NCBI GenBank assembly: GCA_965223845.1 | Contig: CBDCXR010000004.1 | Span: forward strand, 1,728,001-1,792,000 | Origin: Planctomycetota bacterium | Lineage (GTDB): Bacteria > Planctomycetota > UBA8108 > SXIK01 | Direction: 5' to 3' | DNA: 64,000 nt | Shown: positions 39,208-64,000 of the stretch, piece after piece | How positions within the stretch are numbered: position 1 is the first letter of the stretch | How the letters are laid out: every line of letters begins with the position of its first letter | Position numbers and translations under genes: made by a program | Notes under the pieces: model-generated | Database searches by the model: none | What the model was told of the DNA's origin: nothing | What the model saw: the letters and a program-made list of their open reading frames with translations, nothing else

Positions 39208-39255
39208 CGGTCCCTCCCGGCGCTGATCCAATCGGCTCGCGGAGGGACGCGGCGG

Positions 39256-40596: not shown

Positions 40597-40734
40597 GGAT
40601 CTCTTCCCTCCTTTGCGCGATCGGCGGATCACACCCGTCGGGCGGGCGCATCGCCGACTCGCCGGTGTGCGTTCGCCCGCCGACGAAGCTCGATCATCGA
40701 ATTCTCCGCACCGCCCGCTCGAGCGTCAACGGTG

Positions 40735-43942: not shown

Positions 43943-44026
43943 GAGAGGACCGCCCCGTGACGGGCCGAAGATGCGGGAATTGGGCCGCTGTTCGCCGAAC
44001 CAGACCCGCGAGCGCTCGATCGCCCG

Positions 44027-45114: not shown

Positions 45115-45356
45115 AGTATTTCGTTTATCGGTGGGGCCGCCGCGGAATCTCCACCCAATCGGTAAAGAATGACGAGGTCCGGCTGCGGGAAGGAGGAGGG
45201 ACCTCTTTCGTACCACGAAGACGCCCCGAATCAAGCTCGTCGCCCCTTGTGCACGTCCCTTTCAGATCGCTCCCGCTGTGGTATCGTGCGGGCGCGAAGC
45301 GAGTTCGAAGAGCGGGATCGCGGACTCGAGCTTCTCGGCCCGCCAAGGATGAAGGC

Positions 45357-46142: not shown

Positions 46143-46158
46143 CCCGGTCGAGTCGCTA

Positions 46159-46242
46159 CCCGGTGATTCAACCCCGGTTATTCAACCCCGGTTATTCAAC
46201 CCCGGTTATTCAACCCCGGTTATTCAACCCCGGTTATTCAAC
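46159..46242. repeat. Tandem repeat, 6 x 14 bp (CCCGGTTATTCAAC)
   Basis: Five identical units at 46173-46242 plus one variant (CCCGGTGATTCAAC) at 46159-46172, between convergent genes. Confidence 0.95.
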
Positions 46243-46647
46243 CCTGTCGACGAGGCTCGACGTGACGTCCGCCTGGCGCTGACAGTCGATGCACAGCCGA
46301 GCGAACGGAAGAAACTCGAGTCGTGCGGGGGCGATCGCGCCGCCGCAGTCCTCGCACCGGCCGTAGGTGCCGGCCGCGATCTTCTCGAGAGCGGAATCGA
46401 TCTGATCGATGTTGCTCGCACCGAGATCGACGATGGCGCAGAGCGAATCGGCGTCCGACGAGTCGCCGGACATCTCCTCGAGATCGGCGATGTGGTGTCG
46501 GTCGGCGCTCCGCAGAGCGCTCAACTGACTGTTTTGCTGCTGCACGAGCTGCTCACGGCGCGCGAGCAGCGCACCGCGGATGGACTTCAACTGCGACGCG
46601 GTGAACGACGGTCCCGAGTCGTTCCCTGACTCATTCTTTCTCGTCAC
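46234..46647 (-). CDS. DksA/TraR C4-type zinc-finger protein
   Basis: Coiled coil followed by IDSALEKIAAGTYGRCEDCGGAIAPARLEFLPFARLCIDCQ. Start set at GTG 46647. Confidence 0.85.
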   Translation of the reverse strand: MTRKNESGNDSGPSFTASQLKSIRGALLARREQLVQQQNSQLSALRSADRHHIADLEEMSGDSSDADSLCAIVDLGASNIDQIDSALEKIAAGTYGRCEDCGGAIAPARLEFLPFARLCIDCQRQADVTSSLVDRVE

Positions 46648-47001
46648 TGATTTCTCGTTGGCTGACGTTGTGCTCGAAGCTTCTACGTCTTCTCGACGTC
46701 TCGGTTCGAAGCCTTGAGTGTTGCTCTTCGATTCGAATCCCGGTTCTGCGGTGGGATTTCGGAGAGCCCTCTCGAGTTCCTCGCTCGATGACACTCTCCA
46801 GCCTACCACCGCCGAGACACTCTCGCACTTTCTCCGGCCGGCGCGATGCGGGGAAGTGGTTGTAACGATGTCCGAGGGAAAAACCCAGTCGCAATCTCGC
46901 GCGAAGTGTGCTTCCTCTCGCCGTCGACTTCGATCGGGTGGCGGGCGAGAATGTGTTCGTCGTGGCGATCGCGCCGTCCCCCATCTCGACGAACCGACTC
47001 G

Positions 47002-48924: not shown

Positions 48925-49089
48925 ACGAACCGGGGCTCGCTCGGAGGATTCTCTGCGATCCCGACCGAGTGCAGCGAGTCCGAACCGCATCCGCGAACGA
49001 GGCATCCCGACACACGACACCGACGCGATCGTCCAGTCGCGACCGAAGGGACGCGAGGGTCTGAGCTCGTCCGGCGAAGGGAGAGTGCA

Positions 49090-51474
49090 ATGATCAAGAA
49101 AGCCGCCGTCATCGGCGCCGGAACGATGGGAGCGGGCATCGCCGCTCAACTCGCCAACACGGGTGTGTCCTGTCTCCTCCTCGACATCGTGCCACCCGAC
49201 CTCCCGGATGCGGCGAAGAGCGATCCGCGCGCGCGCTCGAAGTTCGCGATCGACGGTGTCGATCGGATGGCGAAGGGAAGGCCGCCGGGGTTCATGACGG
49301 CCGCTCAGCGCGACCTCGTCGACGTCGGCAACATCGATGACGATCTCGAGCGGATCTCCGACTGCGACTGGATCGTCGAAGCGGTGACGGAGAACCTCGA
49401 GATCAAGCGTTCGCTCTACGAGAAGATCGCGCGCGTGAAGCGTCCGGACGCCGTTGTCTCTTCGAATACGTCGGGGCTCGCGCTCCGCCTGCTGACCGAA
49501 GGCTTCGATGAGACCTTCCGCAAGAACTTCCTCATCACGCACTTCTTCAACCCGCCGCGGTACATGCACCTCCTCGAGATCGTTCCCGGTCCCGAGACCG
49601 CTCCGGAAGTCGTCGCGGAGATCGAGCGATTCTGTGACGTCCGGCTCGGGAAGGGGGTCGTCCACTGCAAGGACAGTCCGAACTTCATCGCGAACCGCAT
49701 CGGCGTCTACGTCATGGGAGTGGGCGCCCAGCTCATGGCGGAGGAGGGCCTCAACATCGAGGAGATCGACGCGATCACCGGTCCGGTGCTCGGCCGCCCC
49801 AAGACGGCGTCGTTCAAGCTCCAGGATCTAGTCGGAATCGATGTGTCGGTCCTCGTCATGGAGAATGCGAAGCGTCTGCTGCCGGACGACGAAAGCCTCG
49901 CCGGATTCGAAGTGCCCGAGATTCTTCGCCGGCTCGTCGACGCGGGACGTCTCGGCCGAAAGAGCGGGGCCGGCTTCTACAAGAAAGTAGGGCGCGACAT
50001 TCTCGTTCTCGATCTCGAGACGTTCGAATACCGCGAATCGAAGCCGGTGGAGTTCGCAAGCCTCGCTGCCGCGTCCAAGGTGCGGACGCCGGGCGAGCGG
50101 ATTCGAGCGCTCGTCGGTGGCGACGATGCCGCGGCGCGTTACGCCTGGAAGTTGCTCGCGGCTACGCTTCTCTACTCGGCGCGGCGCATCCCGGAAATTT
50201 CGGACGATCTTGTCAGTGTCGACCGCGCGCTTCGCTGGGGATTCAACTGGGAGCTCGGCCCGTTCGAGACGTGGGACGCGATCGGTGTCCGTGAGTCTGT
50301 CGAGAGGATGCGAGCCGACGGTCACGACATTCCCCCTCTCTGCACGCAGCTTCTCGACGCCGGACACGAGTCGTTCTACGGCTACATCGAGAGTTCGTCC
50401 GGAAAGACGCGCTCGGTCTTCGATCCCGGTACGAGAGAGTTTGCGCCGATAGAGGAACGGCCAGGCGTCCTCTCCCTGACGGCGCTGCGCGATCGTAGTC
50501 GACCGATCGACGGCTGTGACGACGCGAGCATCTGGGATCTCGGGGACGGAGTCCTCGGCGTCGAATTCCACTCGAAGATGAACTCGATCTCAGGCGACAC
50601 GCTCGACACGATTCAGCGCGCCGTCGAACTGGCCGAGACGGGTGGATACGAGGGCGTCGTGGTGGGGAACGAGGCTCCGCACTTCTCGGTCGGAGCGAAC
50701 CTCAAGCAAGTCGTCGCGGCGATGGACCAGGAACAGTGGGATGGAATCGACGCGATGATCCGCCGTTTCCACCGAACCGCACTCGCGATGCGATACTCCG
50801 CGGCGCCGGTCGTCGTTGCGACGCAGGGCATGGCGCTCGGCGGCGGCTGCGAGATCGCGCTCGCGGGCACTCGGGTCCAGTCGGCGGCAGAAACCTACAT
50901 GGGCCTCGTCGAGCTCGGCGTCGGATTGATCCCGGCGGGCGGAGGAACGCGCGAGCTCGCGTGCCGCGCGCATGAACGCGCACCGGGAAAGTCGCCGAAC
51001 GCGGTGTTCGCGTATCTCCAAGAGTTTTTCGATACGGTGGCGAACGCGAAGACTTCGAGCAGCGCCGATGACGCCCGAGCGCTCGGGTTTCTCGAGCGCG
51101 AGGATGCCGTCACGATGAGTCCGGATCGCGTCATCGCCGATGCGAAGGCGCGCGTCCTCGCACTCGCCGCGACGGGATACCGTCCGCCTCTCCCCCGACG
51201 TTCCGTGCGCGTTGCGGGTCGTCCCGGATGGGCAGAGTTCAAGGTTCTCCTTCACCAGTACCGCGAGGGAGAGTTCATCAGCGACTACGACCTCCACCTC
51301 GGAAAGAAGTTCGCCTACGTCCTCTGCGGCGGAGACATCGACCACGAGTTCACGGTCTCGGAGGAGTACTTGCTCGACCTCGAACGCGAGGTGTTCCTCG
51401 AACTCGTCCGGGAAAAGAAAACTCAGGAGCGCATCGCGCACACGCTGAAGACCGGAAAACCGCTCCGGAATTGA
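49090..51474 (+). CDS. fadN: 3-hydroxyacyl-CoA dehydrogenase/enoyl-CoA hydratase (FadN type)
   Basis: GAGTMGAGIA, SNTSG, HFFNPPRYM and NFIANRIG. Crotonase part ALGGGCE/GLVELGVGLIPAGGG. Ends TGKPLRN. Confidence 0.9.
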   Translation: MIKKAAVIGAGTMGAGIAAQLANTGVSCLLLDIVPPDLPDAAKSDPRARSKFAIDGVDRMAKGRPPGFMTAAQRDLVDVGNIDDDLERISDCDWIVEAVTENLEIKRSLYEKIARVKRPDAVVSSNTSGLALRLLTEGFDETFRKNFLITHFFNPPRYMHLLEIVPGPETAPEVVAEIERFCDVRLGKGVVHCKDSPNFIANRIGVYVMGVGAQLMAEEGLNIEEIDAITGPVLGRPKTASFKLQDLVGIDVSVLVMENAKRLLPDDESLAGFEVPEILRRLVDAGRLGRKSGAGFYKKVGRDILVLDLETFEYRESKPVEFASLAAASKVRTPGERIRALVGGDDAAARYAWKLLAATLLYSARRIPEISDDLVSVDRALRWGFNWELGPFETWDAIGVRESVERMRADGHDIPPLCTQLLDAGHESFYGYIESSSGKTRSVFDPGTREFAPIEERPGVLSLTALRDRSRPIDGCDDASIWDLGDGVLGVEFHSKMNSISGDTLDTIQRAVELAETGGYEGVVVGNEAPHFSVGANLKQVVAAMDQEQWDGIDAMIRRFHRTALAMRYSAAPVVVATQGMALGGGCEIALAGTRVQSAAETYMGLVELGVGLIPAGGGTRELACRAHERAPGKSPNAVFAYLQEFFDTVANAKTSSSADDARALGFLEREDAVTMSPDRVIADAKARVLALAATGYRPPLPRRSVRVAGRPGWAEFKVLLHQYREGEFISDYDLHLGKKFAYVLCGGDIDHEFTVSEEYLLDLEREVFLELVREKKTQERIAHTLKTGKPLRN

Positions 51475-51525
51475 GAGCTGAGCTCGACTCGACGGCGAGA
51501 CGGCGATGCACGGAGGAATCGACTC

Positions 51526-52704
51526 ATGAAAGAAGCAGTGATCGTCAGCGGTGCACGGACCGCGATGGGAAAGGGACGCAAGGGAACGCTGCGGACAGTG
51601 CGACCCGACGACCTCGCCGCGGCGGTGATCCGCGAGTGCGTCGAGCGCGCCCCCGGGCTCGAGCCGAAGGATGTCGGTGACGTTCTCCTCGGGTGCGCGA
51701 TTCCCGAGCAGGAGCAAGGGATGAACGTCGCGCGCATCGCGAGCCTGAGGGCCGGTCTTCCGCCCGTGGTCCCGGCGGCGACGGTCAACCGGTTCTGCTC
51801 GTCGGGGCTGCAGACGATCGCGATGGGAGTGGACGCGATTCAGTGCGGGCGTACCGACTGCGTCATCGCGGGCGGAACGGAGACGATGAGCCGCATCGAA
51901 ATGTTCGCTCGCGCGTACCCGAATCCAGAGCTGGCCGAGGCCTGGCCGGACGTGTATCTCGGGATGGGACTCACCGCCGAGAATCTCGCCAGAAAGTACG
52001 GAGTCTCCCGCGAGGACGCGGACGCCTTCGCTGTCGAGAGCCATCAGAAGGCGCTCGCGGCGATCGACGCCGGGAACTTCGATGCCGAGATCGTGCCCTA
52101 CCCGGTCGCGATTCGGCGTCCCGGCGCGGAGGGAGCGACCGTCGTCGAGACCATCGAGTTCAAGCGCGACGAATGTCCGCGGGCCGACACCTCGCTCGAA
52201 GGACTCGGACGGCTGCGGCCGGTCTTTCACCGAAAAGGGACCGTCACCGCAGGAAACGCGTCCCAGATGAGCGACGGCGCCGCGGCGGTTGCCCTTCTCT
52301 CGCGCGAGAAGGCCGACGCCCTCGGACTCAAGCCGCGCGCCGTGCTGCGGAGTTTCGCGGTCGCGGGCGTCCTCCCGGAGATCATGGGGATCGGTCCGGT
52401 CGCCGCGGTTCCGAAGGCGCTCGACCAATGCGGACTTTCGCTCGCGGACATGGATTTCATCGAGCTCAACGAAGCCTTCGCGTGTCAGGCGCTCAGCGTC
52501 ATTAAGGAGCTCGAGCTCGATCCTGAAAAGGTGAACGTCAACGGTGGGGCGGTCGCGCTCGGGCATCCTCTCGGATGCACGGGAGCGCGTCTCTCGCTCA
52601 GCGCGGTCCACGAGCTCGAGCGCCGATCCGCTCGGTTCGCCCTCGTCACGATGTGCATCGGCGGGGGCATGGGTGCGGCGGGAGTGTTCGAACGGGTCGC
52701 CTGA
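51526..52704 (+). CDS. fadA: Acetyl-CoA C-acyltransferase (thiolase)
   Basis: NRFCSSGLQ, NEAFA, GHPLGCTG and MCIGGGMG. Confidence 0.93.
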   Translation: MKEAVIVSGARTAMGKGRKGTLRTVRPDDLAAAVIRECVERAPGLEPKDVGDVLLGCAIPEQEQGMNVARIASLRAGLPPVVPAATVNRFCSSGLQTIAMGVDAIQCGRTDCVIAGGTETMSRIEMFARAYPNPELAEAWPDVYLGMGLTAENLARKYGVSREDADAFAVESHQKALAAIDAGNFDAEIVPYPVAIRRPGAEGATVVETIEFKRDECPRADTSLEGLGRLRPVFHRKGTVTAGNASQMSDGAAAVALLSREKADALGLKPRAVLRSFAVAGVLPEIMGIGPVAAVPKALDQCGLSLADMDFIELNEAFACQALSVIKELELDPEKVNVNGGAVALGHPLGCTGARLSLSAVHELERRSARFALVTMCIGGGMGAAGVFERVA

Positions 52705-52869
52705 CACCGCCGCGGATCGCCGAAAGGCCGTAGTTCGAGGGTCGGCGCGGTAGAATCCAGCCCGCGACCCGGGATAAAATCGGGCGTTTCGTCCCGCCCG
52801 AGGGGCGAGCGCGGTCGCCACCGGGCGCGCGCCAAACCCGATTCCTCTCGACCGGACAAGCATCGACCG

Positions 52870-54174
52870 GTGACCCGCGCTCACCTCGCCCGCGTCCAGC
52901 TAGCTAGACTCACCGCGCTCCTCCGCGCGCTCTGGGAGCGGAATCCGTTCTACACGCGGAAGCTGCGCGCGGCGGGATGGTCGCCTTCGGTGCTCGACGG
53001 CCCGCTCGAGCTCGACTCGCTTCTCGACTCGCTCCCGCTCACGACGAAGGCGGAGCTTCAAGCCGCGCAAGCCGAGCATCCGCCGTTCGGCGACAACCTC
53101 ACGTCGCCGCTCGAGGAGTACGTGCGCGTCCACCAGACCTCGGGATCGACGGGCGAGCCGCTCCGCTGGGTCGACACTCGCGAGAGTTGGGATTGGGTGG
53201 TCCGCTGCTGGAGCGAAGTCCTCCACGGAGCGGCGGTCACCCCCGGTGATCGCGCCCTATTCCCGTTTTCATTCGGTCCGTTTCTCGGGTTCTGGGCTGG
53301 CTTCGAAGCGGCGGAACGACTCGGAGTGTTCGTGATCGCCGGCGGCGGAATGCGATCGACGCAGCGGCTCCGATGCATCGTCGATCAGGATGTGTCCGTC
53401 ATCGCTTGTACGCCGACTTACGCGCTCCATCTGGCGGAAGTCGCGCGCGACGAGGGGATCGAGCTCGCGCAGTCGAGTGTACGCGCGGTAATCGTCGCCG
53501 GTGAGCCGGGCGGTTGCATTCCCGCGACGCGAAGCCGCATCGAGGAATCATGGGGTGCGCGCTGCTTCGATCACTGCGGCATGACGGAGGTCGGACCGTT
53601 TGGTGTCGACGATGGCTCGCGCGGGCAGTGCCTTCGCGTCCTCGAGGATGAGTTCATCGTCGAAGTGCTCGCGCCCGATTCGCAATCGCGCGCCGCAGAC
53701 GGTGAAGGCGAACTCGTCATCACCAATCTCGGTCGAACCGCGAGCCCCGTCGTTCGCTACCGAACGGGCGACTCGGTCCGCTGGGTCACGGGAACCGGTG
53801 ACGACGGCTCGGCGTGCGGCTGGCTCGATGGTGGGATCCGGGGGCGCATCGACGAGATGGTGATTGTGAAGGGAAACAACGTATACCCGTCGGCGATCGA
53901 ATCCGTGCTGCGCGAGTTCGACGACGTCGCCGAGTATCGCGTCCGCGTTCTCCCGAGTGGAGAAATGGCGGAGCTTGTCGTAGAGATCGAGCCTCGAGCG
54001 GGATCTAAGCGGTCGGTTTCGCATCGAGGCGAGCTCGCGGCCGCAGTGGCCGCGAGGCTCGAGACGCGCCTCCTCTTCCGCGCGGAAGTGAAGGAAGTGT
54101 CCCCGGGCTCGCTCCCGAGATTCGAGCTCAAGGGACGGCGCGTCGTCCGTGAATCCTCGGGAGAGAATCAGTAA
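52870..54174 (+). CDS. Phenylacetate-CoA ligase (PaaK) family adenylating enzyme
   Basis: HQTSGSTGEP, CTPTYA, GMTEVG, RYRTGD and GRIDEMVIVKGNNVYP. Confidence 0.85.
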   Translation: MTRAHLARVQLARLTALLRALWERNPFYTRKLRAAGWSPSVLDGPLELDSLLDSLPLTTKAELQAAQAEHPPFGDNLTSPLEEYVRVHQTSGSTGEPLRWVDTRESWDWVVRCWSEVLHGAAVTPGDRALFPFSFGPFLGFWAGFEAAERLGVFVIAGGGMRSTQRLRCIVDQDVSVIACTPTYALHLAEVARDEGIELAQSSVRAVIVAGEPGGCIPATRSRIEESWGARCFDHCGMTEVGPFGVDDGSRGQCLRVLEDEFIVEVLAPDSQSRAADGEGELVITNLGRTASPVVRYRTGDSVRWVTGTGDDGSACGWLDGGIRGRIDEMVIVKGNNVYPSAIESVLREFDDVAEYRVRVLPSGEMAELVVEIEPRAGSKRSVSHRGELAAAVAARLETRLLFRAEVKEVSPGSLPRFELKGRRVVRESSGENQ

Positions 54175-54277
54175 GGAACACGCGCCGGAAGTGGATCCAA
54201 CCTCTTCTGCGTGGGATGCAAACTGGACGGTAGACACCCTCTCCGACGGTGATCACCGACGGAGGGGAAGGAGATCG

Positions 54278-56518
54278 ATGGTGATACCTAAAGTGGCTCG
54301 AGCGAAGACCGAAAGTCCGCGGACTCGCAGTGTCGCGATCGGAGCGGTAAGCGTCGTCGCGGCGCTCCTCAGTGTTTCTGCGTTTGCCGGTGACTGGCCC
54401 AACTGGCGAGGCCCCGAGAACAACGGCGCGGCGCGAGAGACGAAGCTGCCCGGTGAATGGGAGCTGCGCTGGAAGGCGCCCTTCGGAGGTCGTTCGACCC
54501 CCGTCGTGCACAACGGGCGCGTCTATGTTCTCAACCGGGCTGGTTCGGGTGTGAACGAGCAGGAGCGGGTCCTTTGCGTCGACGCCAAGAGCGGCGATGT
54601 CCTCTGGGAGCACCGCTTCGGCGTCTACCTCACCGACATCCCTTCGACTCGCATCGGATGGGCGAGTCCGGTCGTCGATCCGGAGACAGGACACGTTTAC
54701 GCGCACGGCGTCCAGAACACGTTCATCTGTCTCGACCGCGACGGCAAAGTCATTTGGCGTCGCCAGCTTCACGAAGAGTACGGGACGATCAACGGGTACG
54801 GTGGTCGCACGCATACTCCCATCATCGACGAAGACCGCGTCGTGATCAGCTTCCTCAACTCGAGCTGGGGACCGCAGGCACCGGGTCGACATCGCTATGT
54901 CGCTTTCGACAAGCGCACCGGCGCCGTGCAGTGGTGGGCGACGCCCGGGGGGCCTCCCCTCGACACGACCTATTCCGTTCCGGTCGTCGCCGTCGTCGGC
55001 GGCGTGCGACAACTCATCGCGGGAAACGCCGATGGCAACGTCTACGGTATGGAGGCGCGCACCGGCCGTCGGCTGTGGACATTCCGCGTGTCGAAGCGAG
55101 GCATCAATGCCTCGCTGGTCGAGTGGAACGGGAAGGTCTTCGTCTCGCACAGCGAGGAGAACATCGACGAAGCTTCGATGGGGCGCGTGATCTGCATCGA
55201 TGCGACCGGACGCGGCGACATCACGAAGACTCACGAAGTGTGGCGCCAGGACGGAATCACGGCCGGCTACGCCTCTCCAGCGATCTCGAATGGACGATGC
55301 TACGTCGCGGACAACTCCGCGAATCTTCACTGCTACGATGCAACGACCGGAACTGAACTCTGGGCGATCAACTTCGGCACGGTTGCCAAGGGGTCGCCCG
55401 TCGTCGCGGACGGGAAGATTTACATCTGCGAAGTCAACGGCAAGTTCCTGATCCTCGATGCGGGCGAAACGAAGAGCAAGATTCTGAGCACCAAGGAGTT
55501 CCACACCGACGACGGCGTCGTCGAAATGTTCGGATCACCGGCGATCGCGGGCGGCCGCATCTACTTCAACACGCGCGACGAGCTCTACTGCTTGGGCGCG
55601 AAGGAATGGGACGGAAGCACCGCCGAAGCCCCCGCCGCGCCGACCGAGGTCGCTTCCGCGGATGCGAAGGCGACTCTGCTTCACGTCGTGCCGGCGGACG
55701 TCGTCCTCGAGCCCGGTCAGTCGATCGCGTTCGGAACGAAGGCGTTCGACGACACCGGCCGCGCCGTCGAGCTCTCGGGCGAGGCGGAGTGGTCGGTCGT
55801 GGGGGTCGAGGGTGAAATCTCCGCAAGCGGGAAGCTGACGGTGTCCGCCGCGAATTCCTTCGGGCAGGGCTTCGTCGTCGCGAAGCTCGGAGATCTCGAG
55901 GGGCGCGCACGGATTCGTACGACGCCACCGATCCCATTCAGCGTGGACTTCTCGGGGGTGGCTGCGACGAAGCCGCCGGCGGGTTGGGTCGGTGCAGGGA
56001 TCAAGTTCGTCGGCGCAGAGTACAAGGGCGAAGCGGTTCTCACAAAGCCGGGGACTCGCTCTAAGTTCATGGACGCCGAGACGTTCTTCGGACTGTCGAC
56101 GTGGCGCAATTACACCATCGAAGCCGATGTGCTCGCGATCGAGCGCAAGCGGAATCTGCCCAACATCGGCGTGATCAACTCCGGATACGAGTTCGTGCTG
56201 ATGGGAAACCATCAGCGCCTCCGCATCGTGTCGTGGGTGCCGCAGCCGCGCATCGAGAAGAAGGTGCGCTTCAAGTGGGACCCGGAAGTTTGGTACCGTA
56301 TGAAGTTTCGTGTCGCGGAGAAGGGGGGAGTCGCGACCCTTCAGGGAAAAGTCTGGAAGCGCGACGATGCCGAGCCGGAAGCGTGGACGGTCGAACTCGA
56401 AGACCCGAACCCGAACGGGGGCGGGGCTCCGGCTCTCCACGGTTACTCGGCGGGGGCGCGAGCCAAGTCGGCGGGCGCTCAGATTTATTACGACAACGTC
56501 AAGGTGACGCGAAATTGA
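54278..56518 (+). CDS. Secreted PQQ-like beta-propeller protein with Ig-like and C-terminal jellyroll (DUF1080-like) domains
   Basis: Signal peptide (SAFA), DWPNWRGP, repeated C.D..G..LW and SP blades, Ig-like VVPADVVLEPGQ and C-terminal NYTIEADV...WYRMK. RBS GAAGGAG. Confidence 0.85.
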   Translation: MVIPKVARAKTESPRTRSVAIGAVSVVAALLSVSAFAGDWPNWRGPENNGAARETKLPGEWELRWKAPFGGRSTPVVHNGRVYVLNRAGSGVNEQERVLCVDAKSGDVLWEHRFGVYLTDIPSTRIGWASPVVDPETGHVYAHGVQNTFICLDRDGKVIWRRQLHEEYGTINGYGGRTHTPIIDEDRVVISFLNSSWGPQAPGRHRYVAFDKRTGAVQWWATPGGPPLDTTYSVPVVAVVGGVRQLIAGNADGNVYGMEARTGRRLWTFRVSKRGINASLVEWNGKVFVSHSEENIDEASMGRVICIDATGRGDITKTHEVWRQDGITAGYASPAISNGRCYVADNSANLHCYDATTGTELWAINFGTVAKGSPVVADGKIYICEVNGKFLILDAGETKSKILSTKEFHTDDGVVEMFGSPAIAGGRIYFNTRDELYCLGAKEWDGSTAEAPAAPTEVASADAKATLLHVVPADVVLEPGQSIAFGTKAFDDTGRAVELSGEAEWSVVGVEGEISASGKLTVSAANSFGQGFVVAKLGDLEGRARIRTTPPIPFSVDFSGVAATKPPAGWVGAGIKFVGAEYKGEAVLTKPGTRSKFMDAETFFGLSTWRNYTIEADVLAIERKRNLPNIGVINSGYEFVLMGNHQRLRIVSWVPQPRIEKKVRFKWDPEVWYRMKFRVAEKGGVATLQGKVWKRDDAEPEAWTVELEDPNPNGGGAPALHGYSAGARAKSAGAQIYYDNVKVTRN

Positions 56519-56595
56519 GTGTCTCGGGAGACTCCCGAACGCTCGCGCGAGCACGGAACGAATTCATCAACCCACGAGAAGAGATCAGCGAAGCA

Positions 56596-58215
56596 ATGAG
56601 GTATCTCTCGAGTCGCACCGTCGGTGGCTGGATCGCCGCCGCTCTGGTTTTCGCGGTGGCCATCGGCTGCCATTCGTCGGCGAGCGTCGAGGATGTCGAC
56701 GCGGCCGAGTCCGCGTCCGAGTCGGCCGGCGATGGCGATGCGGAATCGGCGGCCGTCGAGGTCGCTTCCGATGCCGCTTCTTCGAATTCGGCCGGCGGGA
56801 CCAACGCCGAACCGGAGCCCACCCCTGAACCTGCTCCCGCGCGAACGGACTGGACGATGTGGGGTGGCACACCCGGGCGGAACATGATCAACACCGTCGC
56901 GAAGAACATCCCCGCCGAGTGGGACCTCGAATCGAAGAAGAACATCCTCTGGGCGCAGGCGCTCGGCTCGCAGTCCTACGGGAACACGGTCGTTCACGAC
57001 GGCAGGATCTTCATCGGCACGAACAACGAAGGCCACCGGAACCCGGAAATCAAGGGCGACAAGGGCGTGATCATGTGCTTTCGGGAGAAGGACGGCGAGT
57101 TCCTTTGGCAGATGGTGCACGACAAGCTGGAAGCGGGGCGAGTGAACGACTGGCCGGAGCAGGGGATTTGCTCGTCACCGGTTTGCGAGGACGGCCGGAT
57201 CTACTACGTGAGCAACCGCGCCGAGGTCGTGTGCGCCGACGTCGAGGGGTTCCTCGACGGCGAAAACGATGGACCCTACAAGGACGAAAAGTACACGAGC
57301 AAGATCGACGGAGACGCCATCTGGGTCTTCGACATGATGGACGAGCTCGGAGTCTTTCCTCACAATCTCGCGACCTGCTCTCCGCTCGTCATCGGTGACC
57401 TCATCTTCGTGATCACTTCGAACGGAGTCGAGCGCGACCACATTACGATCCCGAACCCGCGCGCGCCGAGCCTCCTCGCGCTCGATAAGAATACGGGCGA
57501 GCTGAAGTGGGATCGCGCCGATCCCGGCGAGGACATCCTGCACGGGCAGTGGTCGGCACCCTCCTTCATTCGAGCGGGAGGGAAGGACCAGATCATCTTC
57601 CCGGCGGGAGACGGCTGGGTCCGCAGCCACAAACCGGAAGACGGCGAGATCATTTGGGAATTCGATACCAACCCGAAAGACTCCGTGTGGGAGCTCGGAG
57701 GTCGCGGCACCCGCAACAACTTGATCTCGACCGCGGCGTGCGTCGACGGAGTGGTCTACATCGCGGTCGGACAGGATCCCGAGCACGGTGAGGGAATCGG
57801 CCATCTCTACGCGATCGACGCATCGAAGACGGGCGATATCACCGAGTCCGGAAAGCTCTGGCACTACGGGGGCAAGGAGTTCAAGCGAACGATCTCCTCG
57901 TTTGCGGTCGCGGACGGCCTCGTCTACGCGGCGGACTTGAGCGGATTCCTCCACTGCATCGACGCGTCGACCGGCCGTCCGTACTGGATTCACGATACCT
58001 TCGCCGCCGTCTGGGGCTCGCCGACGGTCATCGACGGCAAGGTGTTTCTCGGCGACGAGGACGGCGACGTCGTCGTGCTGCGCCACAGCAAGGACGCGAA
58101 GGAAGTCCTCTTCGAGACGAACATGGAGGACTCCGTCTACACGACACCGATCGTCGCCAACGGAATCCTCTACATCTCGACGCGTACGCACCTGTACGCG
58201 ATCGGAGCGAAGTAG
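56596..58215 (+). CDS. PQQ-like beta-propeller lipoprotein
   Basis: Lipobox AIGC, acidic linker, WTMWGGTPGRNM, LGSQSYG, GICSSP and WGSP blades. Confidence 0.85.
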   Translation: MRYLSSRTVGGWIAAALVFAVAIGCHSSASVEDVDAAESASESAGDGDAESAAVEVASDAASSNSAGGTNAEPEPTPEPAPARTDWTMWGGTPGRNMINTVAKNIPAEWDLESKKNILWAQALGSQSYGNTVVHDGRIFIGTNNEGHRNPEIKGDKGVIMCFREKDGEFLWQMVHDKLEAGRVNDWPEQGICSSPVCEDGRIYYVSNRAEVVCADVEGFLDGENDGPYKDEKYTSKIDGDAIWVFDMMDELGVFPHNLATCSPLVIGDLIFVITSNGVERDHITIPNPRAPSLLALDKNTGELKWDRADPGEDILHGQWSAPSFIRAGGKDQIIFPAGDGWVRSHKPEDGEIIWEFDTNPKDSVWELGGRGTRNNLISTAACVDGVVYIAVGQDPEHGEGIGHLYAIDASKTGDITESGKLWHYGGKEFKRTISSFAVADGLVYAADLSGFLHCIDASTGRPYWIHDTFAAVWGSPTVIDGKVFLGDEDGDVVVLRHSKDAKEVLFETNMEDSVYTTPIVANGILYISTRTHLYAIGAK

Positions 58216-58275
58216 CGCTGATCCTGTCCTCGAGAACACCTCCTTACGGCGCGCCCGCCGCCTCCCGAGTACATC

Positions 58276-59379
58276 ATGACGAATGACGTTAGAGAACTGA
58301 CGGCTCCCGCGTCCGAGGAGCAGATCCGTACCGCCCGGGAACGCCTCGACGCTTGGGTTGTCGAGGTCGTCGACTGGCACTTCGATCCCGCGACGGGCTG
58401 TCCGTTTTGGCTCGACTACGCATCGAAGCTCGATTGGGATCCGCGAAAAGAGGTGCGCTGCTTCGCCGATCTCAACAAATTCGACGAGTTCGAGGACGAG
58501 TGGCTCCGAGGCGGTCCGGTCCAGCGCTGGGTTCCGAAGGGACTCGAAGGAAAACCCGTCTACGTGTTCGAAACGGGTGGGACGACCGGCGTTCCGAAGT
58601 CACGCATCAACATCGAAGACTTCCGCACCGACTACTCGATGTTCAGTGAGACGCTCTCGGACGACGGCTTCCCGCGCGGCGCCGATTGGCTGTCGCTCGG
58701 GCCGACCGGTCCACGGCGACTTCGCCTCGCGGTCGAGCACCTAGCCCAGGTGCGCGGAGGCATCTGTTTCTGCCTCGACATGGACCCACGCTGGTTCACG
58801 AAGTGTCTCAAGCGAGGCTGGCTCGACGTCGCCGAGGCGTACAAGACTCACGTGATCGACCAAGCTCTCACGCTTCTCAAGGCGCACGAGAACATTCAGT
58901 GTCTCTTCACGACGCCGAAGCTGCTCGAGGCGCTCTGCGAGAAGATCTCGCTCAAGCAGGTCGGCATCAAAGGCATATTCTGCGGCGGCACGCAGATGAC
59001 TCCCCAGTTCCATCGTTTCGCGCGAGAGGAGCTCCTCGAGGGCGTCGAGTTCGTCCCGACCTACGGGAACACGCTCATGGGGCTCGCGTGTCACAAGCCG
59101 TACATTCCGGAGGACGACTACGCGATCATCTACTTCCCACCGCATCCGCGAGCCGTTCTCTCGGTGGTGGATCCCGACGATCCGAAGCGCGACGTCGATG
59201 TGGGCGGAGTGGGCCGCGTGAAGCTCACCACGCTCACCAAGGAGTTTTTCGTACCGGGCTTTCTCGAGCGCGACGAAGCCGAACTCGTCGGACCGATCGC
59301 AAGATACCCCTGGCCGGGAGTGAAGAACGTCCGTCCGTTCTCCCGCTTCCAAACGGCCGTGATCGAGGGAGTTTACTGA
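58276..59379 (+). CDS. GriC/EhpF/LuxE-like short adenylate-forming enzyme
   Basis: WHFDPATGCPFW, AMP-binding loop FETGGTTGVPK, YGNTL and FLERD. At 367 aa it lacks the usual ANL C-terminal domain. Confidence 0.7.
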   Translation: MTNDVRELTAPASEEQIRTARERLDAWVVEVVDWHFDPATGCPFWLDYASKLDWDPRKEVRCFADLNKFDEFEDEWLRGGPVQRWVPKGLEGKPVYVFETGGTTGVPKSRINIEDFRTDYSMFSETLSDDGFPRGADWLSLGPTGPRRLRLAVEHLAQVRGGICFCLDMDPRWFTKCLKRGWLDVAEAYKTHVIDQALTLLKAHENIQCLFTTPKLLEALCEKISLKQVGIKGIFCGGTQMTPQFHRFAREELLEGVEFVPTYGNTLMGLACHKPYIPEDDYAIIYFPPHPRAVLSVVDPDDPKRDVDVGGVGRVKLTTLTKEFFVPGFLERDEAELVGPIARYPWPGVKNVRPFSRFQTAVIEGVY

Positions 59380-59382
59380 GCG

Positions 59383-60801
59383 ATGCTTCACATTCCGATC
59401 CTCCGCGGCGGCCGGCCCTACGAGAGTATCGACAAGACCGAAGTGCGGGACTACCGAACGGGCGAGCCCGTCGCGATGCTCAGCGTCGCGAACGGTGGGC
59501 TCATTTCGCGTGACCTCCGCGACCAGAGCATCGCGACGAGCCCACTTCGCCACGTGTCGACGACCGAGCTGATCTCCCGCACGCAGGAAGCGGCGGAGCA
59601 TTTCCTTCACGGTGAGCTTCCGCTCGGGGACTCCACGCAGAGCTACGACGACTACATCGAGCAGCTCTCGTGGACGACGGGATTGCCGAAGACTCTCTGC
59701 CGAGCGAATGCGGAAAAGATCTACCATGTGATGGCGAAGATCGACGAGGTGCTCGGAGGGCTCACGCGAGGCCTTGACCTCTCGATCCTCGATCGCGGCT
59801 TCGGCGAGCAGAACGGACGGACTCTCTGCTTCATGCAGCAGGCGCGCACGCTCGGTGCGGTTCTTCCGAGCAACTCGCCCGGAGTTCATTCGCTGTGGGT
59901 GCCGGCGATCGCTCTCAAGGCGTGCCTCTGCCTGAAGCCGGGGCGGGAGGAGCCGTGGTCTCCGTACCGAGTGCTCCAGGCCTTCCTCAAGGCGGGGATC
60001 CCGGGCGATGCGTGCGGTTTCTATCCGACGACGCACGACGGTGCGCGCGAGATTCTCATGCGTTCCGGTCGCGCGATGGTGTTCGGCGACGCGTCGACGA
60101 CCCGACAGTGGGAAAACAATCCCGCCGTCCAGGTTCACGGACCTGGTTTCAGCAAGGTGATCTTCGGGCCGGATACCGCCGCGAGTTGGCGCGAGCATCT
60201 CGATGTCCTCGCCGAGTCGGTGGCCCTCAACGGCGGACGCTCCTGCATCAATGCCTCGGCGATCTGGACGCCTTCGCACGGACGCGAGCTCGCCGCTGCG
60301 CTCGCCGAACGCCTGGCGTCGATCGCGCCGCGTCCGGCAGACGATCCCGCCGCGGAGCTCCCGGCCTTCGTGAACCCGAAGTTCGCGGAGATGATGGACG
60401 CCGCGATCACGGCTGGTCTCGGAACGCCGGGCGCCGAGGACTTGTCGCTCGCTCACCGGCCGGAGCGCCTCGTTCGACAAGACGGCTGCACGTATCTACT
60501 CCCAACGGTGATTTGGTGCCGCGATCGCGAGCATCCACTGGCGGGGAAGGAGTTTCTCTTCCCGTACGTCGCGGTCGTCGAGTGTCCACCGGAGGACATG
60601 CTCGAAAGCATCGGCCCCACTCTCGTCGCGACCGTCATCACGGATGATCCCGCGCTGAAGGCCGCTCTCATGACTTGCCCGCACGTCGACCGCCTCAACA
60701 TCGGCCCTCAGCCGACCTGCCGCATCAGCTGGGATCAACCGCACGAAGGGAATCTCTTCGAGCACCTCTACCGCCAGCGCGCGTTCCAGTACGTGGCGTA
60801 G
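59383..60801 (+). CDS. Aldehyde dehydrogenase-fold acyl reductase (GriD/LuxC-like)
   Basis: LPSNSPG, LKPG, HGPGFSK in place of ELGG, catalytic NGGRSCINAS and EFLFP. Starts 3 nt after the preceding stop. Confidence 0.8.
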   Translation: MLHIPILRGGRPYESIDKTEVRDYRTGEPVAMLSVANGGLISRDLRDQSIATSPLRHVSTTELISRTQEAAEHFLHGELPLGDSTQSYDDYIEQLSWTTGLPKTLCRANAEKIYHVMAKIDEVLGGLTRGLDLSILDRGFGEQNGRTLCFMQQARTLGAVLPSNSPGVHSLWVPAIALKACLCLKPGREEPWSPYRVLQAFLKAGIPGDACGFYPTTHDGAREILMRSGRAMVFGDASTTRQWENNPAVQVHGPGFSKVIFGPDTAASWREHLDVLAESVALNGGRSCINASAIWTPSHGRELAAALAERLASIAPRPADDPAAELPAFVNPKFAEMMDAAITAGLGTPGAEDLSLAHRPERLVRQDGCTYLLPTVIWCRDREHPLAGKEFLFPYVAVVECPPEDMLESIGPTLVATVITDDPALKAALMTCPHVDRLNIGPQPTCRISWDQPHEGNLFEHLYRQRAFQYVA

Positions 60802-60825
60802 ACGAAGCCCGAGTACGCCGCACCC

Positions 60826-61989
60826 ATGTCGAAATCGATTCTCGATCGCCTCCACTTCCAGTACGCACCGAGGACGCGGATCCTCTTCGGGAACGGAACG
60901 ATCGACGAGCTCGGTCCGACGGCAGTACTCGAAGGCGGGACGAGCGTCCTCCTCGTCACCGACCCGGGAATCGAACGCGCCGGCCACGTCGCCCGCGCCG
61001 TCGCCAGCCTCGACGCGGCGGGGGTTCGCACGCGCGTCTTCAGCGGAGTCGCGGAGAATCCGACCTCGAATCACGTCGCGGAAGGCGTCCAGTTCGCGCA
61101 GCGAGAGGCGTTCGACATGATCGTCGGACTCGGTGGCGGAAGCGCGATGGATTGCGCGAAGGGGATCAACTTCATCCACTCGTGCGGCGGCACGATGCGC
61201 GATTACCTCGGGGTCGGCAAGGCGACCGGACCGATGCTGCCGATGATCGCCGTGCCGACCACCGCCGGAACGGGGAGCGAGTCCCAGTCCTTCGCCCTGA
61301 TCTCCGATCCGGACACGCACCAGAAGATGGCCTGCGGCGACTCACGGGCGGCATTCCGAGTCGCTATCCTCGATCCTCTGCTGACGTTGTCGCAACCGAA
61401 CGCGGTCACGGCAGCGACCGGGATCGACGCACTAGCGCACGCGGTCGAGAGCTTCGTGACGACGAAGCGCACCCCGTTCTCAGAGGTGTTTTCGCGAGAA
61501 GCCTTCCGGTTGATCGCGGGGAGCCTCGAGCGAGTCCTCGAAGCACCCGATGACGTGGACGCCCGCGGCCGGATGCAGCTCGGCGCGACGTTCGCCGGCA
61601 TCGGAATCGAAAACTCGATGCTCGGGGCAACCCACTCGGCCGCGAATCCCGTCACGGCGCATTACGGCACCGTGCACGGCGTTGCGATCGGAATTCTTCT
61701 TCCTCACGTCGTCCGCTACAACGCGCCCGACGTCGGCGAACGCTACGCCGAGCTCGCGGCGCTCGCCGGGGTTCAAGTCGACGAGCTCGGGGCCGGCGCG
61801 GCGCTCGCGGGGCTTCTCGAGCGCATCCACGGGAGGACCGGACTTTCAGCGCGACTCGGTGATTGCGGGGTGACGGCGGACGCCGTCGCCGCGCTCGCCG
61901 CGGAGGCCGCGACGCAGTGGACGGCGCAGTTCAACCCGCGTCCGATCTCGAGTCCCGATTTCGAGGAGATCTATCGATGCGCTCTGTGA
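60826..61989 (+). CDS. Iron-containing alcohol dehydrogenase
   Basis: LGGGSAMDCAK, PTTAGTGSE, DALAHAVE, THS and HGVAIG. Confidence 0.92.
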   Translation: MSKSILDRLHFQYAPRTRILFGNGTIDELGPTAVLEGGTSVLLVTDPGIERAGHVARAVASLDAAGVRTRVFSGVAENPTSNHVAEGVQFAQREAFDMIVGLGGGSAMDCAKGINFIHSCGGTMRDYLGVGKATGPMLPMIAVPTTAGTGSESQSFALISDPDTHQKMACGDSRAAFRVAILDPLLTLSQPNAVTAATGIDALAHAVESFVTTKRTPFSEVFSREAFRLIAGSLERVLEAPDDVDARGRMQLGATFAGIGIENSMLGATHSAANPVTAHYGTVHGVAIGILLPHVVRYNAPDVGERYAELAALAGVQVDELGAGAALAGLLERIHGRTGLSARLGDCGVTADAVAALAAEAATQWTAQFNPRPISSPDFEEIYRCAL

Positions 61990-63443
61990 ATCGTTGCGCC
62001 CGGATCTGGATCGCGGGTCTCTGGCTCGCCGGTGGTGCGGGGATCTCCATCGCTCTTTCCTGCGGCGAGAGCGCTCCGCTCGTCGAACCGGCGGACGATC
62101 GACCCGAGCGCGAATCTACCGGTGCGAAGTCGGATGCCGGCGCCGCGTCGAGTCTCTTCGCGGGGGCCGAACCCTACACGGCCGACTGGCCGACGTTTCG
62201 GGGCGACCCGATGCTGCGCGGGTATCGCACCGGCCGCGTCGCGCGCGAACCGAAGCTTCTCTGGACATACGAGATCGACACCTACATCGAGTCGACGCCA
62301 GCCATCGTGGGGGACACCGTCTATGTCGGCACCGACGACCAGGGTCTACTCGCCCTCCGCCTTTCGCCGACGTCGAAGAGCGGCGAGCTCCGTTGGAAGT
62401 ACCCGGTCGAGCTGTCGATCCGCTCGTCTCCTTCGGTCCGCGACGGACGAGTGTACGTGACCTGCGACGAGGGATATCTCCACTGCGTCGATGCCGACTC
62501 CGGGGAACGGATCTGGCGCTTCGATACGGAGAGCGGAACGGAGACCCCGTCGTCTCCTCAATTCGCGGGCGACCTCGTTCTTTTCGGTTCGTACGACGCG
62601 TATCTCTACGCCGTGAACGCGACGAGCGGAAAGCTCGCGTGGAAGGTCGAGACGCTCGGTCCGATCCACTGCACTCCCGCCATCGCGAACGGCTACACCT
62701 TCGTCGCCGGCTGCGACGAGTCGCTCCGGGTGATTTCCTTCGCCGAGCGCGCTTGCGTCGGCGCGGCTCCGCTCGGTGCCTACAGTGCTGCGTCGCCGGC
62801 GATTCTCGGTGACCGCTTGTTCGTCGGAACCTACGCCAACCAGTTCGTCGCAGTCGACTGGAGGCGCGAGGGGAAGATCACTCTGCCCCCTCCGGAGGAC
62901 GATTTCGCCGTCGCGAGCACGTCGAACTCCGCCTCGGACGAACGCCCGTCGACGACCCCAGCACCCAGTCCGTCTCCGGCTCCGGCCCCCAGTCCCGCTC
63001 CGGCCCCGACCGCGGAGAAAGCCACACCGGACGTCTCGTCTCCCGTCGCGTGGGTCTACGAGCACGCGCGGCGCAAGTTCCCCTACCACGCGAGCGCCGC
63101 GATCGCTCCGATCGCGACCGCAGAAGGCGCGCCCGCGCGGACCGTCGTGATCGCGCCGGGACGGGACAAGCTCGTTCACTGCCTCGACGCGAACACCGGC
63201 GACCACCTCTGGGACTTTCCCACTCGGGCCCGCATCGACGCCTCTCCGGTCATCGTCGGGGAGACGGCGATCGTGTGTGGACTCGACGGGCGCGTCTACT
63301 TCCTCTCGGCGCGTTCCGGCGAGCTCGAATGGAGTTTCAACGCGGGGTCCCCTTTCCGGGCCTCGCCGGCCGTCGCGAGAGGTCGGCTCGTCGTCGCTTC
63401 GGACGAGGGACTCATCCACTGCTTCGATCTCACACCGCGTTGA
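61977..63443 (+). CDS. PQQ-like (BamB-like) beta-propeller lipoprotein
   Basis: Lipobox ALSC, DWPTFRGD and repeated S.P...G...W blades. Start overlaps the ADH stop (ATG 61977 or GTG 61986). Confidence 0.85.
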   Translation: MRSVNRCARIWIAGLWLAGGAGISIALSCGESAPLVEPADDRPERESTGAKSDAGAASSLFAGAEPYTADWPTFRGDPMLRGYRTGRVAREPKLLWTYEIDTYIESTPAIVGDTVYVGTDDQGLLALRLSPTSKSGELRWKYPVELSIRSSPSVRDGRVYVTCDEGYLHCVDADSGERIWRFDTESGTETPSSPQFAGDLVLFGSYDAYLYAVNATSGKLAWKVETLGPIHCTPAIANGYTFVAGCDESLRVISFAERACVGAAPLGAYSAASPAILGDRLFVGTYANQFVAVDWRREGKITLPPPEDDFAVASTSNSASDERPSTTPAPSPSPAPAPSPAPAPTAEKATPDVSSPVAWVYEHARRKFPYHASAAIAPIATAEGAPARTVVIAPGRDKLVHCLDANTGDHLWDFPTRARIDASPVIVGETAIVCGLDGRVYFLSARSGELEWSFNAGSPFRASPAVARGRLVVASDEGLIHCFDLTPR

Positions 63444-63477
63444 CGCCGTCCGCAGAGCGAGGGTGGACTCGCGAACG

Positions 63478-64000
63478 ATGAACATCGCTCTCGTAGCGGC
63501 CGGAGCGGCCGGGATGTACTGCGGCAGTTGCCTCCGCGACAACGCGCTCGCGCTCGCGCTCGTCGATCTCGGTCACGGCGTCACCTTCGTTCCGACGTAC
63601 ACTCCGCTCCGTGTCGACGGACGAGCGGCGCCGGCGGAGCGCGTGTTCCTCAATGGACTGCAGGTGTACGCGGAAAACTCGCTCGGAATCGCTCGACGCG
63701 CAGGGTGGTTCCGCCGTCTTCTCGGCTCGAACGCGCTTCTCCGCTGGGTGTCGCGGCTCGCCGTTGACAACGATCCACGGAAGCTCGGCTCGCTCACGGT
63801 TTCGATGCTCCGAGGGACGGACGGGAACCAGCGAACGAGCTGTCTCGAGCTCGTCGACTGGCTCGCGGCAAACGTCCGCGCGGACGTGATCCACCTCAGC
63901 AATCTTCTCCTCACCGGCCTCGCGCCGGCGCTTCGGGCCCGGCTCGGGGTACCGATGACCTGCGGACTCACGGGCGAGGATCAGTTCGTCGAGAACATTC
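63478..64000 (+). CDS. Glycosyltransferase family 4 with N-terminal MYCGSC motif (partial)
   Basis: Not in the ORF track because it has no stop in the window. Hand translation: MNIALVAAGAAGMYCGSCLRDNALALALVDLGHGVTFVPTYTP...ADVIHLSNLLL...LTGEDQF. The family call rests on the N-terminal domain only. Confidence 0.7.
   Translation, partial: MNIALVAAGAAGMYCGSCLRDNALALALVDLGHGVTFVPTYTPLRVDGRAAPAERVFLNGLQVYAENSLGIARRAGWFRRLLGSNALLRWVSRLAVDNDPRKLGSLTVSMLRGTDGNQRTSCLELVDWLAANVRADVIHLSNLLLTGLAPALRARLGVPMTCGLTGEDQFVENI

Follow-up and report, generated by a model that had tools for sequence, protein, structure and literature searches.

Reduction of an ATP-activated carboxylic acid to the aldehyde is the chemistry of the carboxylic acid reductases (CAR) and of LuxC/LuxE, and in Pantoea agglomerans EhpF and EhpG start a reduction that turns one of the two carboxylates of phenazine-1,6-dicarboxylate into a hydroxymethyl group, which is later O-acylated. 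Here, we analyzed a 64-kb stretch of the genome of a Planctomycetota bacterium (hereafter, the window), which ends in a run of same-strand genes for a putative pair of this kind, namely a short adenylating enzyme (adenylase) and an aldehyde dehydrogenase (ALDH)-fold protein, together with three exported beta-propellers, a group III iron-containing alcohol dehydrogenase (Fe-ADH) and a GT4 glycosyltransferase. EhpF to EhpO are described as converting phenazine-1,6-dicarboxylate to D-alanylgriseoluteic acid (PMC3175449), and such a pair is labelled ehpF and ehpG in the tables of PMC11278526. For GriC and GriD, the passages of PMC10179220 that deal with the pair describe an AMP-binding protein that forms the acyl-AMP and a second protein that reduces it, with 3-amino-4-hydroxybenzoate as the substrate. 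The gene set proved to be real, widespread and so far uncharacterized, and we give an even chance to the reading that the region is the Planctomycetota-type version of a module built around an EhpF/EhpG-type reductase and a GT4 and coupled to envelope proteins.

By homology, the pair really is of the EhpF/EhpG (GriC/GriD-like) kind of two-protein carboxylate reductase, as a preliminary description of this DNA had proposed, since the adenylase matches EhpF over its full length and the gene behind it encodes an EhpG homologue. The adenylase aligned with the solved EhpF (PDB 3l2k/3hgu) with a phmmer E of 2.3e-39, residues 27-367 on 23-366. It consists of the N-terminal ANL domain only: Pfam found AMP-binding alone, while the neighbouring PaaK-like ligase also shows AMP-binding_C_2, and the protein ends level with the last residue of EhpF, so that the C-terminal ANL domain is missing. 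In a 12-sequence alignment, the P-loop E99-K108 and 160 other columns are invariant; the invariant P-loop residues E99, T100, G101, G102, T104, G105, P107 and K108 align with ESGGTTGAPK of EhpF.

The partner gene lies directly 3′ of the adenylase gene, after a gap of 3 nt in the window. Over nearly their whole length, BLASTP aligned the ALDH-fold protein with the product of the ALDH gene beside ehpF on a Pantoea plasmid (26% identity, E 4e-34), with a Streptomyces pair partner (30% identity, E 2e-42) and with a haloarchaeal pair partner (E 3e-31). N164, C288, E390 and H454 are invariant in nine ALDH-fold sequences, three of them from outside the clade. The general-base position of the ELGGK motif is occupied by GPGxSK, and the general-base Glu is absent. 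As the Cys and the oxyanion Asn are kept and the thioester-hydrolysing residue is not, the protein has the residues expected if the reaction halts at the thioester, and it fits a reductase that would release an aldehyde.

A model of the adenylase in complex with the ALDH-fold protein scored 0.68, compared with 0.00 for the best of three controls. That mark is reached by 116 of 157 solved complexes and by 2 of 215 mismatched pairs, counts that are approximate here, with our own alignments used as input. The runs agreed in at least 81% of contacts, with a partner predicted local distance difference test (pLDDT) score of at least 90. The predicted interface includes residues 15-17 and 35-46 of the ALDH-fold protein, the stretch SQANxGLIRRD, which is invariant or nearly so in the clade and absent from EhpG and other outgroups. 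PDB sequence searches retrieved no solved adenylase/ALDH complex, only EhpF alone and generic ALDHs, so the score is unlikely to be the memory of such a structure. The model supports a predicted binding of the adenylase to its ALDH-fold partner.

Compared with EhpF/EhpG, the window has the same arrangement of an ANL adenylase without the C-terminal domain followed by a diverged ALDH-fold protein that can be aligned over its full length with the Cys and the Asn kept, and the reduction of an acid followed by O-acylation would be a close parallel to a route from acid to alcohol to O-glycoside. However, identity is only 30% for the adenylase and 26% for the partner, the N-terminal motif SQANxGLIRRD at the predicted interface is peculiar to the clade, and the set has no phenazine genes. 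The neighbours also differ, as the Pantoea ehp genes stand among methyltransferase, MFS, SDR and carrier-protein genes, whereas the pair of the window stands with GT4 and propellers, joined in relatives by an ATP-binding cassette (ABC)/FtsX pair. GriC/GriD of grixazone synthesis in Streptomyces griseus is likewise a two-protein acid-to-aldehyde reductase, a likeness taken from its published description. Unlike single-chain CAR, the pair has no carrier domain, phosphopantetheine or SDR-type reductase domain, and Pfam listed neither LuxC nor LuxE with an E of 0.01 or below.

Relatives of the adenylase also occur on plasmids, where tblastn found 29 of them with 30-38% identity. The one in Pantoea agglomerans (30% identical) lies inside the phenazine (phz) operon, with a gene for an "aldehyde dehydrogenase family protein" directly after it, and the same pairing of adenylase and ALDH-fold protein was found in Streptomyces goshikiensis, where the pair adjoins DAHP synthase and PabB genes, and on a haloarchaeal plasmid. 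Relatives on Streptomyces plasmids that PGAP names "arylcarboxylate reductase" are 32-34% identical to the window adenylase. On plasmid 2 of Halalkalicoccus jeotgali (L084, 7950-10566), an EhpF-like/ALDH-fold pair, 36% and 27% identical, directly follows a sodium:solute symporter gene, so the two-protein unit is found in Archaea as well. An "arylcarboxylate reductase" relative on plasmid p1 of Streptomyces angustmyceticus (L082, 5989-7071) is placed among futalosine-pathway genes (MqnD-like, MqnE and MqnC), without an adjacent ALDH-fold gene.

The adenylase is widespread and highly conserved. A scan of one genome per species returned at least 594 stretches, at least 593 of which encode an adenylase relative, and we analyzed the best 80 (L001-L080). 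At the protein level, more than 8000 clusters at 90% identity matched the adenylase; the best 119 of these, beyond the window's own, are 69-79% identical, and the names, where given, are "hypothetical" or "PaaK-like". By record title, 64 of the 80 loci belong to Acidobacteriota groups, 11 to Planctomycetota including Phycisphaerae, and 1 to Verrucomicrobiia, with 4 under other labels or none. All are metagenome-assembled genomes (MAGs), and the genome of the window itself is not among them, the highest identity being 74%. Three loci labelled Bifidobacteriaceae, Clostridia and Acidimicrobiia (L013, L022 and L080) have the Acidobacteriota-type arrangement with 68-71% identity, and their labels are probably binning or classification errors. 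The neighbourhood comparison across phyla that had been suggested thus finds conservation in two phyla, with adenylases 65-74% identical.

Identity to the window adenylase does not depend on the phylum label, with a median of 70% for both the Acidobacteriota-labelled loci (n = 64, 66-74%) and the Planctomycetota-labelled loci (n = 11, 65-74%). For the ALDH-fold protein, the values are 53% and 55%, and for the GT4 fragment, 44% and 39%, respectively. Since the identity of the adenylase is far above that of its neighbours, the adenylase must be much more constrained. That copies from the same phylum are no closer could possibly come from a ceiling set by constraint, from an old transfer or from the choice of the best 80 loci.

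To count neighbours, 901 open reading frames (ORFs) of the 80 loci were clustered into families and recounted by tblastn with one representative per family, using the 49 loci in which 9.5 kb or more follow the adenylase start and considering genes downstream on the same strand. An ALDH-fold gene is present in 43 of the 49, GT4 in 39, a LolD/MacB-like ABC ATPase in 34 and an FtsX permease in 33, and all four occur together in 31. The ATPase resembles LolD, YbbA and MacB, with 242.9 bits for the LolD model (cut-off 307.75), and the permease is a protein of about 1,100 residues (about 1,000-1,340) with two FtsX domains and a hydropathy profile that suggests periplasmic parts of about 490 and about 240 residues. 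The genes for GT4, ABC ATPase, FtsX permease and a propeller overlap or lie 5-19 nt apart in L006 and L012, and the small ORFs that separate GT4 from ABC genes are pieces of GT4. Of the 49 loci with a length of 15 kb or more, 27 have a propeller gene inside the core block or no more than 400 bp away. The arrangement is not due to chance, as related loci in other genomes show the same neighbours again. An EamA-like gene and an opposite-strand outer-membrane barrel accompany only some Acidobacteriota loci; no further conserved family was found among the 901 ORFs, and no adaptor or TolC-like gene is conserved in the related loci.

The form seen in the window is that of a Planctomycetota-type variant. 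Four components, namely propellers 1 and 2, the PaaK-like ligase and the Fe-ADH, are specific to this variant. The order PaaK-like ligase, propeller 1, propeller 2, adenylase recurs in L003, L021, L047, L058, L067 and L073, with ligase orthologues of 48-50% identity in the same position, and L039 has the same order without the ligase. Propeller 1 orthologues (42-50% identity) stand upstream of the adenylase in seven loci, and weakly conserved counterparts of propeller 3 (29-38% identity) follow the Fe-ADH in L003 and L076. An Fe-ADH gene stands beside the adenylase or ALDH gene only in L003, L009, L021, L039, L046, L047, L073 and L076. In L058, GT4, ABC ATPase and FtsX permease genes are read divergently from the same point. 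The PaaK-like ligase, conserved with the set in six other loci, belongs to it as an eighth gene besides the seven singled out by the preliminary description, which had overlooked it. The FadB-like and thiolase genes further upstream are conserved beside the set in none of the 80 loci, and the flanks of the Planctomycetota-type loci are not conserved, with other genes in each locus.

An ORF listing of the 64-kb window and inspection of start sites gave the gene calls in Table 1. They confirm all coordinates and the spacing of the seven co-oriented genes as described before, with intervals, 5′ to 3′, of 77, 60, 3 and 24 nt, an overlap of 13 nt, in which the start of propeller 3 lies before the Fe-ADH stop, and 34 nt; Pfam and NCBIfam bear out the protein types that had been assigned, and the run does pass the edge of the window, as the GT4 gene is incomplete at 64000. 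The same-strand run starts upstream of the seven genes with a RarA-like ATPase, the FadB-like protein, the thiolase and the PaaK-like ligase, the last separated from propeller 1 by 103 nt. The G+C content is 62-70% throughout the window, and the three propeller genes found in these 64 kb are all within the set.

Table 1. Genes of the set and genes directly upstream of it in the 64-kb window
Product	Coordinates	Strand	Length (aa)	Features
FadB-like protein	49090-51474	+		Upstream of the set
Thiolase	51526-52704	+		Upstream of the set
PaaK-like acyl-CoA ligase	52870..54174	+	434	Pfam AMP-binding and AMP-binding_C_2
Exported propeller 1	54278..56518	+	746	Signal segment; Pfam PQQ_2, E 1.3e-38; C-terminal part of ~300 aa without family
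Exported propeller 2	56596..58215	+	539	Pfam PQQ_2; lipobox-like AIGC; probable lipoprotein
EhpF-type adenylating enzyme	58276..59379	+	367	Pfam AMP-binding only; EhpF homology
EhpG-type ALDH-fold protein	59383..60801	+	472	Pfam Aldedh weak, E 3.7e-9
Group III iron-containing alcohol dehydrogenase (Fe-ADH)	60826..61989	+	387	Pfam Fe-ADH and ADH_Fe_C
Exported propeller 3	61977..63443	+	488	Pfam Beta-prop_ACSF4, 163.7 bits; PQQ_2, E 3e-38; ALSC; probable lipoprotein
GT4 glycosyltransferase	63478..>64000	+	174 (N-terminal part)	MYCGSCLRDN motif; gene crosses the window end

A scan of 46000-64000 for promoters and terminators was uninformative, with no promoter-like site and 13 terminator-like sites against 10.9 expected, none of them between genes of the set. 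Rfam gave no match in 44000-64000 with an E of 1 or below, and an RNA-family search of seven related loci found only RNase P and Acido-Lenti-1 matches away from the set, and no riboswitch. In L002, a Blastocatellia MAG, two Acido-Lenti-1 matches above the gathering score (396-440 and 7149-7193) are upstream of the set without adjoining it. The adenylase, ALDH-fold and Fe-ADH genes (58276-61989) share one reading frame with gaps of 3 and 24 nt, so that loss of a stop codon would join them in frame. Sixteen longer fused proteins are found in the databases, each a single-member cluster with mostly broken coverage: 11 are collinear adenylase-then-ALDH forms, 3 are propeller-then-adenylase and 1 is adenylase-ALDH-ADH; P0121 (1258 aa) is an example of a fusion in the order of the genes. 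These are probably read-through or frameshift calls, and at best weak support for coupling.

All three propellers have N-terminal hydrophobic signal segments, with lipobox-like AIGC and ALSC in propellers 2 and 3, respectively. Their scores fall far below the cut-offs both for the pyrroloquinoline quinone (PQQ) alcohol dehydrogenase model TIGR03075 (50.1, 27.7 and 57.4 bits for propellers 1-3; cut-off 480.05) and for the BamB model TIGR03300 (66.4, 59.5 and 116.5 bits; cut-off 285.2). The predicted structure of propeller 2 (pLDDT 75.2) is eight-bladed, and its closest PDB folds are BamB (E 3e-20, TMt 0.74-0.79); tetrathionate hydrolase ranks tenth, and PQQ alcohol dehydrogenases appear only from rank 45. 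Given a similar fold and BamB scores below the cut-off, we regard it as BamB-like in fold and not as BamB itself. A role of the propellers as PQQ-dependent dehydrogenases was rejected on the TIGR03075 scores and the propeller 2 fold ranking. The earlier naming of the propellers as PQQ-like is therefore right at the level of the repeat and the fold and fails the tests for a PQQ dehydrogenase, and the idea that the product is a cofactor used by quinoprotein-like propellers is left without direct support, the propellers being BamB-like. What the three share with BamB and the PQQ dehydrogenases is the PQQ_2 repeat and, for propeller 2, the BamB-like fold; what sets them apart are the low scores and the extra C-terminal part of 300 aa in propeller 1.

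Propeller 2 is the best conserved of the three, with nine Planctomycetota-labelled orthologues that are 56-68% identical. Across 10 orthologues, many polar positions (His, Asp and Asn) are invariant, such as H175/K177, D185-S193, H256/N257, T274-H282 and Q393-G398, and this pattern suggests an active or binding site rather than a mere scaffold. The C-terminal 302 aa of propeller 1 matched no Pfam family or PDB sequence; in the ESM Atlas, Big_2, Laminin_G and 3-keto-disaccharide-hydrolase-like clusters (score 0.90) give a lead only.

Among the remaining enzymes, the Fe-ADH has ErcA (295 bits, cut-off 550) and lactaldehyde reductase (257 bits) as its best NCBIfam matches, all below cut-off, and methanol dehydrogenase and lactaldehyde reductase as its best PDB relatives. 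The PaaK-like ligase scores 205 and 199.5 bits with the NCBIfam PaaK models, far under their cut-offs, and its best PDB relative is 2-hydroxyisobutyryl-CoA synthetase (6hdw, E 5.2e-67). The GT4 fragment reaches 20.7 bits with Glyco_trans_4_4 (cut-off 29.7), because only 174 aa are inside the window; it is 36-47% identical to full-length orthologues of 425-450 aa, which have Glyco_transf_4 and Glycos_transf_1. The model of a full-length orthologue (pLDDT 89.6) matches the GT-B GT4 enzymes sucrose-phosphate synthase, GlgM, MshA and BshA with TM values of about 0.7, which fixes the predicted fold as GT-B but does not fix the acceptor. Residues M13, C15, G16, C18, R20, D21 and N22 are invariant in 22 sequences, and the CxxC sits where, in the orthologue model, the loop behind strand 1 leads into the beginning of helix 1. 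We know of no GT4 with such a CxxC feature.

The homologies, the conserved catalytic residues, the synteny and the supportive complex model are the observations on which we would build a route, while we infer which way it runs, in what order its steps follow, what GT4 accepts, any part played by the PaaK-like ligase and how the cytoplasmic enzymes are tied to the propellers. The adenylase would use ATP to convert a carboxylic acid to the acyl-adenylate, and the acyl group would pass to Cys288 of the bound ALDH-fold partner, from which NAD(P)H would release the aldehyde. In the Planctomycetota-type variant only, the Fe-ADH most likely reduces the aldehyde to the alcohol. With a nucleotide sugar as donor, the CxxC GT4 most likely glycosylates this product or a compound closely derived from it. 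The glycoside may then be handled at the periplasmic face by the exported BamB-like propellers, which in most Acidobacteriota loci and one Phycisphaerales locus would be joined by the LolD/MacB-like ATPase and the double FtsX permease. To our knowledge, all characterized relatives of the pair act on aromatic acids; the nearest solved relatives of the ligase and the Fe-ADH act on small aliphatic hydroxy compounds, and a MacB/LolD-type transporter would suit an amphiphile.

For the transporter, the closest described system is YbbAP-TesA, which is presented in PMC12646458 as a type VII ABC system that pulls hydrophobic compounds out of the inner membrane and works with a periplasmic enzyme on them. 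As in YbbAP-TesA and other type VII (MacB/LolCDE/FtsEX) systems, the related loci have a LolD/YbbA-like ATPase, a double-FtsX permease and then the gene of a periplasmic partner. Unlike in YbbAP-TesA, that partner is a propeller and not a hydrolase, and the permease has about 1,000-1,340 aa; the likeness comes from the related loci and not from the window.

Several results weigh against this reading of the region. The locus counts come from the best 80 of at least 593 and so describe close relatives only. The Fe-ADH, counted in 4 of the 49 loci, is absent from the common Acidobacteriota form and hence outside the universal core, so that the line from acid through aldehyde and alcohol to glycoside, put forward in the preliminary description, can be proposed for the Planctomycetota-type variant and not for the core. 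In L003, L009, L039 and L076, an Fe-ADH gene comes right after the adenylase gene and no ALDH match was found in the DNA examined, which means that the two genes of the pair are not neighbours everywhere. Identity between the propellers of the Acidobacteriota and those of the window is only 21-25%, and the former lack the invariant motifs of propeller 2, and by a crude measure the density of propeller genes is 0.57 per 10 kb near the core compared with 0.47 elsewhere in the loci. ABC and FtsX genes stand beside the set in a single Planctomycetota-type locus, L058, and the window ends inside GT4, ahead of any place where such genes might follow. In addition, MacB-type transporters are, as far as we know, not known to carry substrates across the inner membrane, so the model is missing a flippase step.

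In an alternative that we consider unlikely, while granting it some weight, the adenylase, the ALDH-fold protein and the GT4 alone form the pathway and the propellers and ABC/FtsX belong to a separate envelope system that shares no substrate with it, their adjacency being a matter of operon history. Such an independence would agree with how common propeller genes are in these phyla, where 20 lie elsewhere in the same loci and the density near the core is barely higher, with the distance between window and Acidobacteriota propellers, which are paralogues of 22% identity, and with the absence of GT4 downstream in 10 of the 49 loci and of ABC or FtsX in 15-16. It is harder to reconcile with the translational packing of ABC, FtsX and propeller genes behind GT4 in L006 and L012 and with the co-occurrence of the four non-propeller neighbours in 31 loci; likewise, propellers 1 and 2 lie between ligase and adenylase in six to seven Planctomycetota-type loci, and propeller 3 overlaps the Fe-ADH stop codon. 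A catabolic regulon for an alcohol, aldehyde and acid, for which the ethanol system of Pseudomonas is the model, would have the propellers oxidize the alcohol, the ALDH-fold protein oxidize the aldehyde, the ligases make the CoA thioester and the FadB-like protein and thiolase degrade it. We consider this improbable: although the protein types fit (PQQ-repeat propellers, an ALDH fold, two AMP-forming enzymes and an Fe-ADH with ErcA as its best match, below cut-off), 2-hydroxyisobutyryl-CoA synthetase is the nearest relative of the ligase, and FadB-like and thiolase genes directly precede the set on its strand, those two genes are conserved beside the set in 0 of 80 loci, the propellers score 50, 28 and 57 bits against the 480-bit cut-off with propeller 2 BamB-like, and the ALDH-fold protein, a member of the EhpG family, has no general-base Glu for the release of a free acid. 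The regulon also leaves no role for a GT4 that is present in 39 of the 49 loci.

We give equally little credence to a strain-level cassette for secondary-metabolite tailoring of an aromatic acid in the style of D-alanylgriseoluteic acid or grixazone, with the scaffold genes elsewhere. Every relative with a named context is so placed, from the Pantoea phz operon and the Streptomyces pair with DAHP synthase and PabB to GriC/GriD as described in PMC10179220. However, neither phz, gri nor other scaffold genes were found among the Pfam results for the ORFs of the 64-kb window or among the conserved neighbour families, and phz, lux and pqq genes are absent from both, which for the window had been stated before. 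The adenylase is 65-74% identical across two phyla and present in at least 593 species genomes, and only 30-38% identical to its plasmid-borne relatives from secondary metabolism. This conservation in two phyla, together with the distance from the plasmid relatives, is more in keeping with a conserved role in physiology than with an accessory antibiotic.

Elsewhere in the window, 37564-43697 holds an HpcH/HpaI aldolase gene on the plus strand and, on the minus strand, genes for a PhyH-family dioxygenase, a DegT-type aminotransferase and an 821-aa fused E1 (alpha and beta) dehydrogenase, a group with a possible role in small-molecule or sugar modification. At 27983-37611, three very large genes on the minus strand (819, 823 and 1477 aa) encode repeated Laminin_G_3 domains, to which the 1477-aa protein adds lamin-tail, CotH kinase and chitobiase-C domains. 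The minus strand at 13456-18544 encodes all components of a 2-oxoacid dehydrogenase (E1 alpha, E1 beta, E2 and E3), and the plus strand at 10345-11748 a second GT4 glycosyltransferase of 467 aa, in a position unrelated to the set.

The enzyme pair is of a known kind. Literature searches found no paper on this module, in which the pair is combined with BamB-like propellers, a CxxC GT4 and a giant ABC system of the type VII-like sort, nor on its breadth and conservation in two phyla, in agreement with the earlier suggestion of an undescribed pathway. A more far-reaching version, which we hold to be speculative and rather unlikely, is that the module is a previously unseen envelope glycoconjugate pathway, in which a lipid-like or aromatic acid would be reduced to the alcohol, glycosylated by a redox-sensitive CxxC GT4, extracted from the inner membrane by the type VII ABC system with its dedicated propeller lipoproteins, and installed or processed by them in the periplasm or outer membrane. 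In its bolder form, the acid would be a long-chain or dicarboxylic fatty acid, and the route would feed alcohol-derived (ether or glycosidic) membrane lipids. If true, the envelope glycoconjugate would be a new class of lipid or cofactor common to Acidobacteriota and Planctomycetota, and many orphan propellers would gain a first function.

In conclusion, Acidobacteriota and Planctomycetota are abundant in soils and waters, and a large share of their conserved genes still lacks an assigned function. A conserved enzyme pair in a recurrent operon offers a concrete and testable entry point into this content, and a positive result would put a name to a new metabolite or envelope component and provide the first function for some BamB-like propellers.

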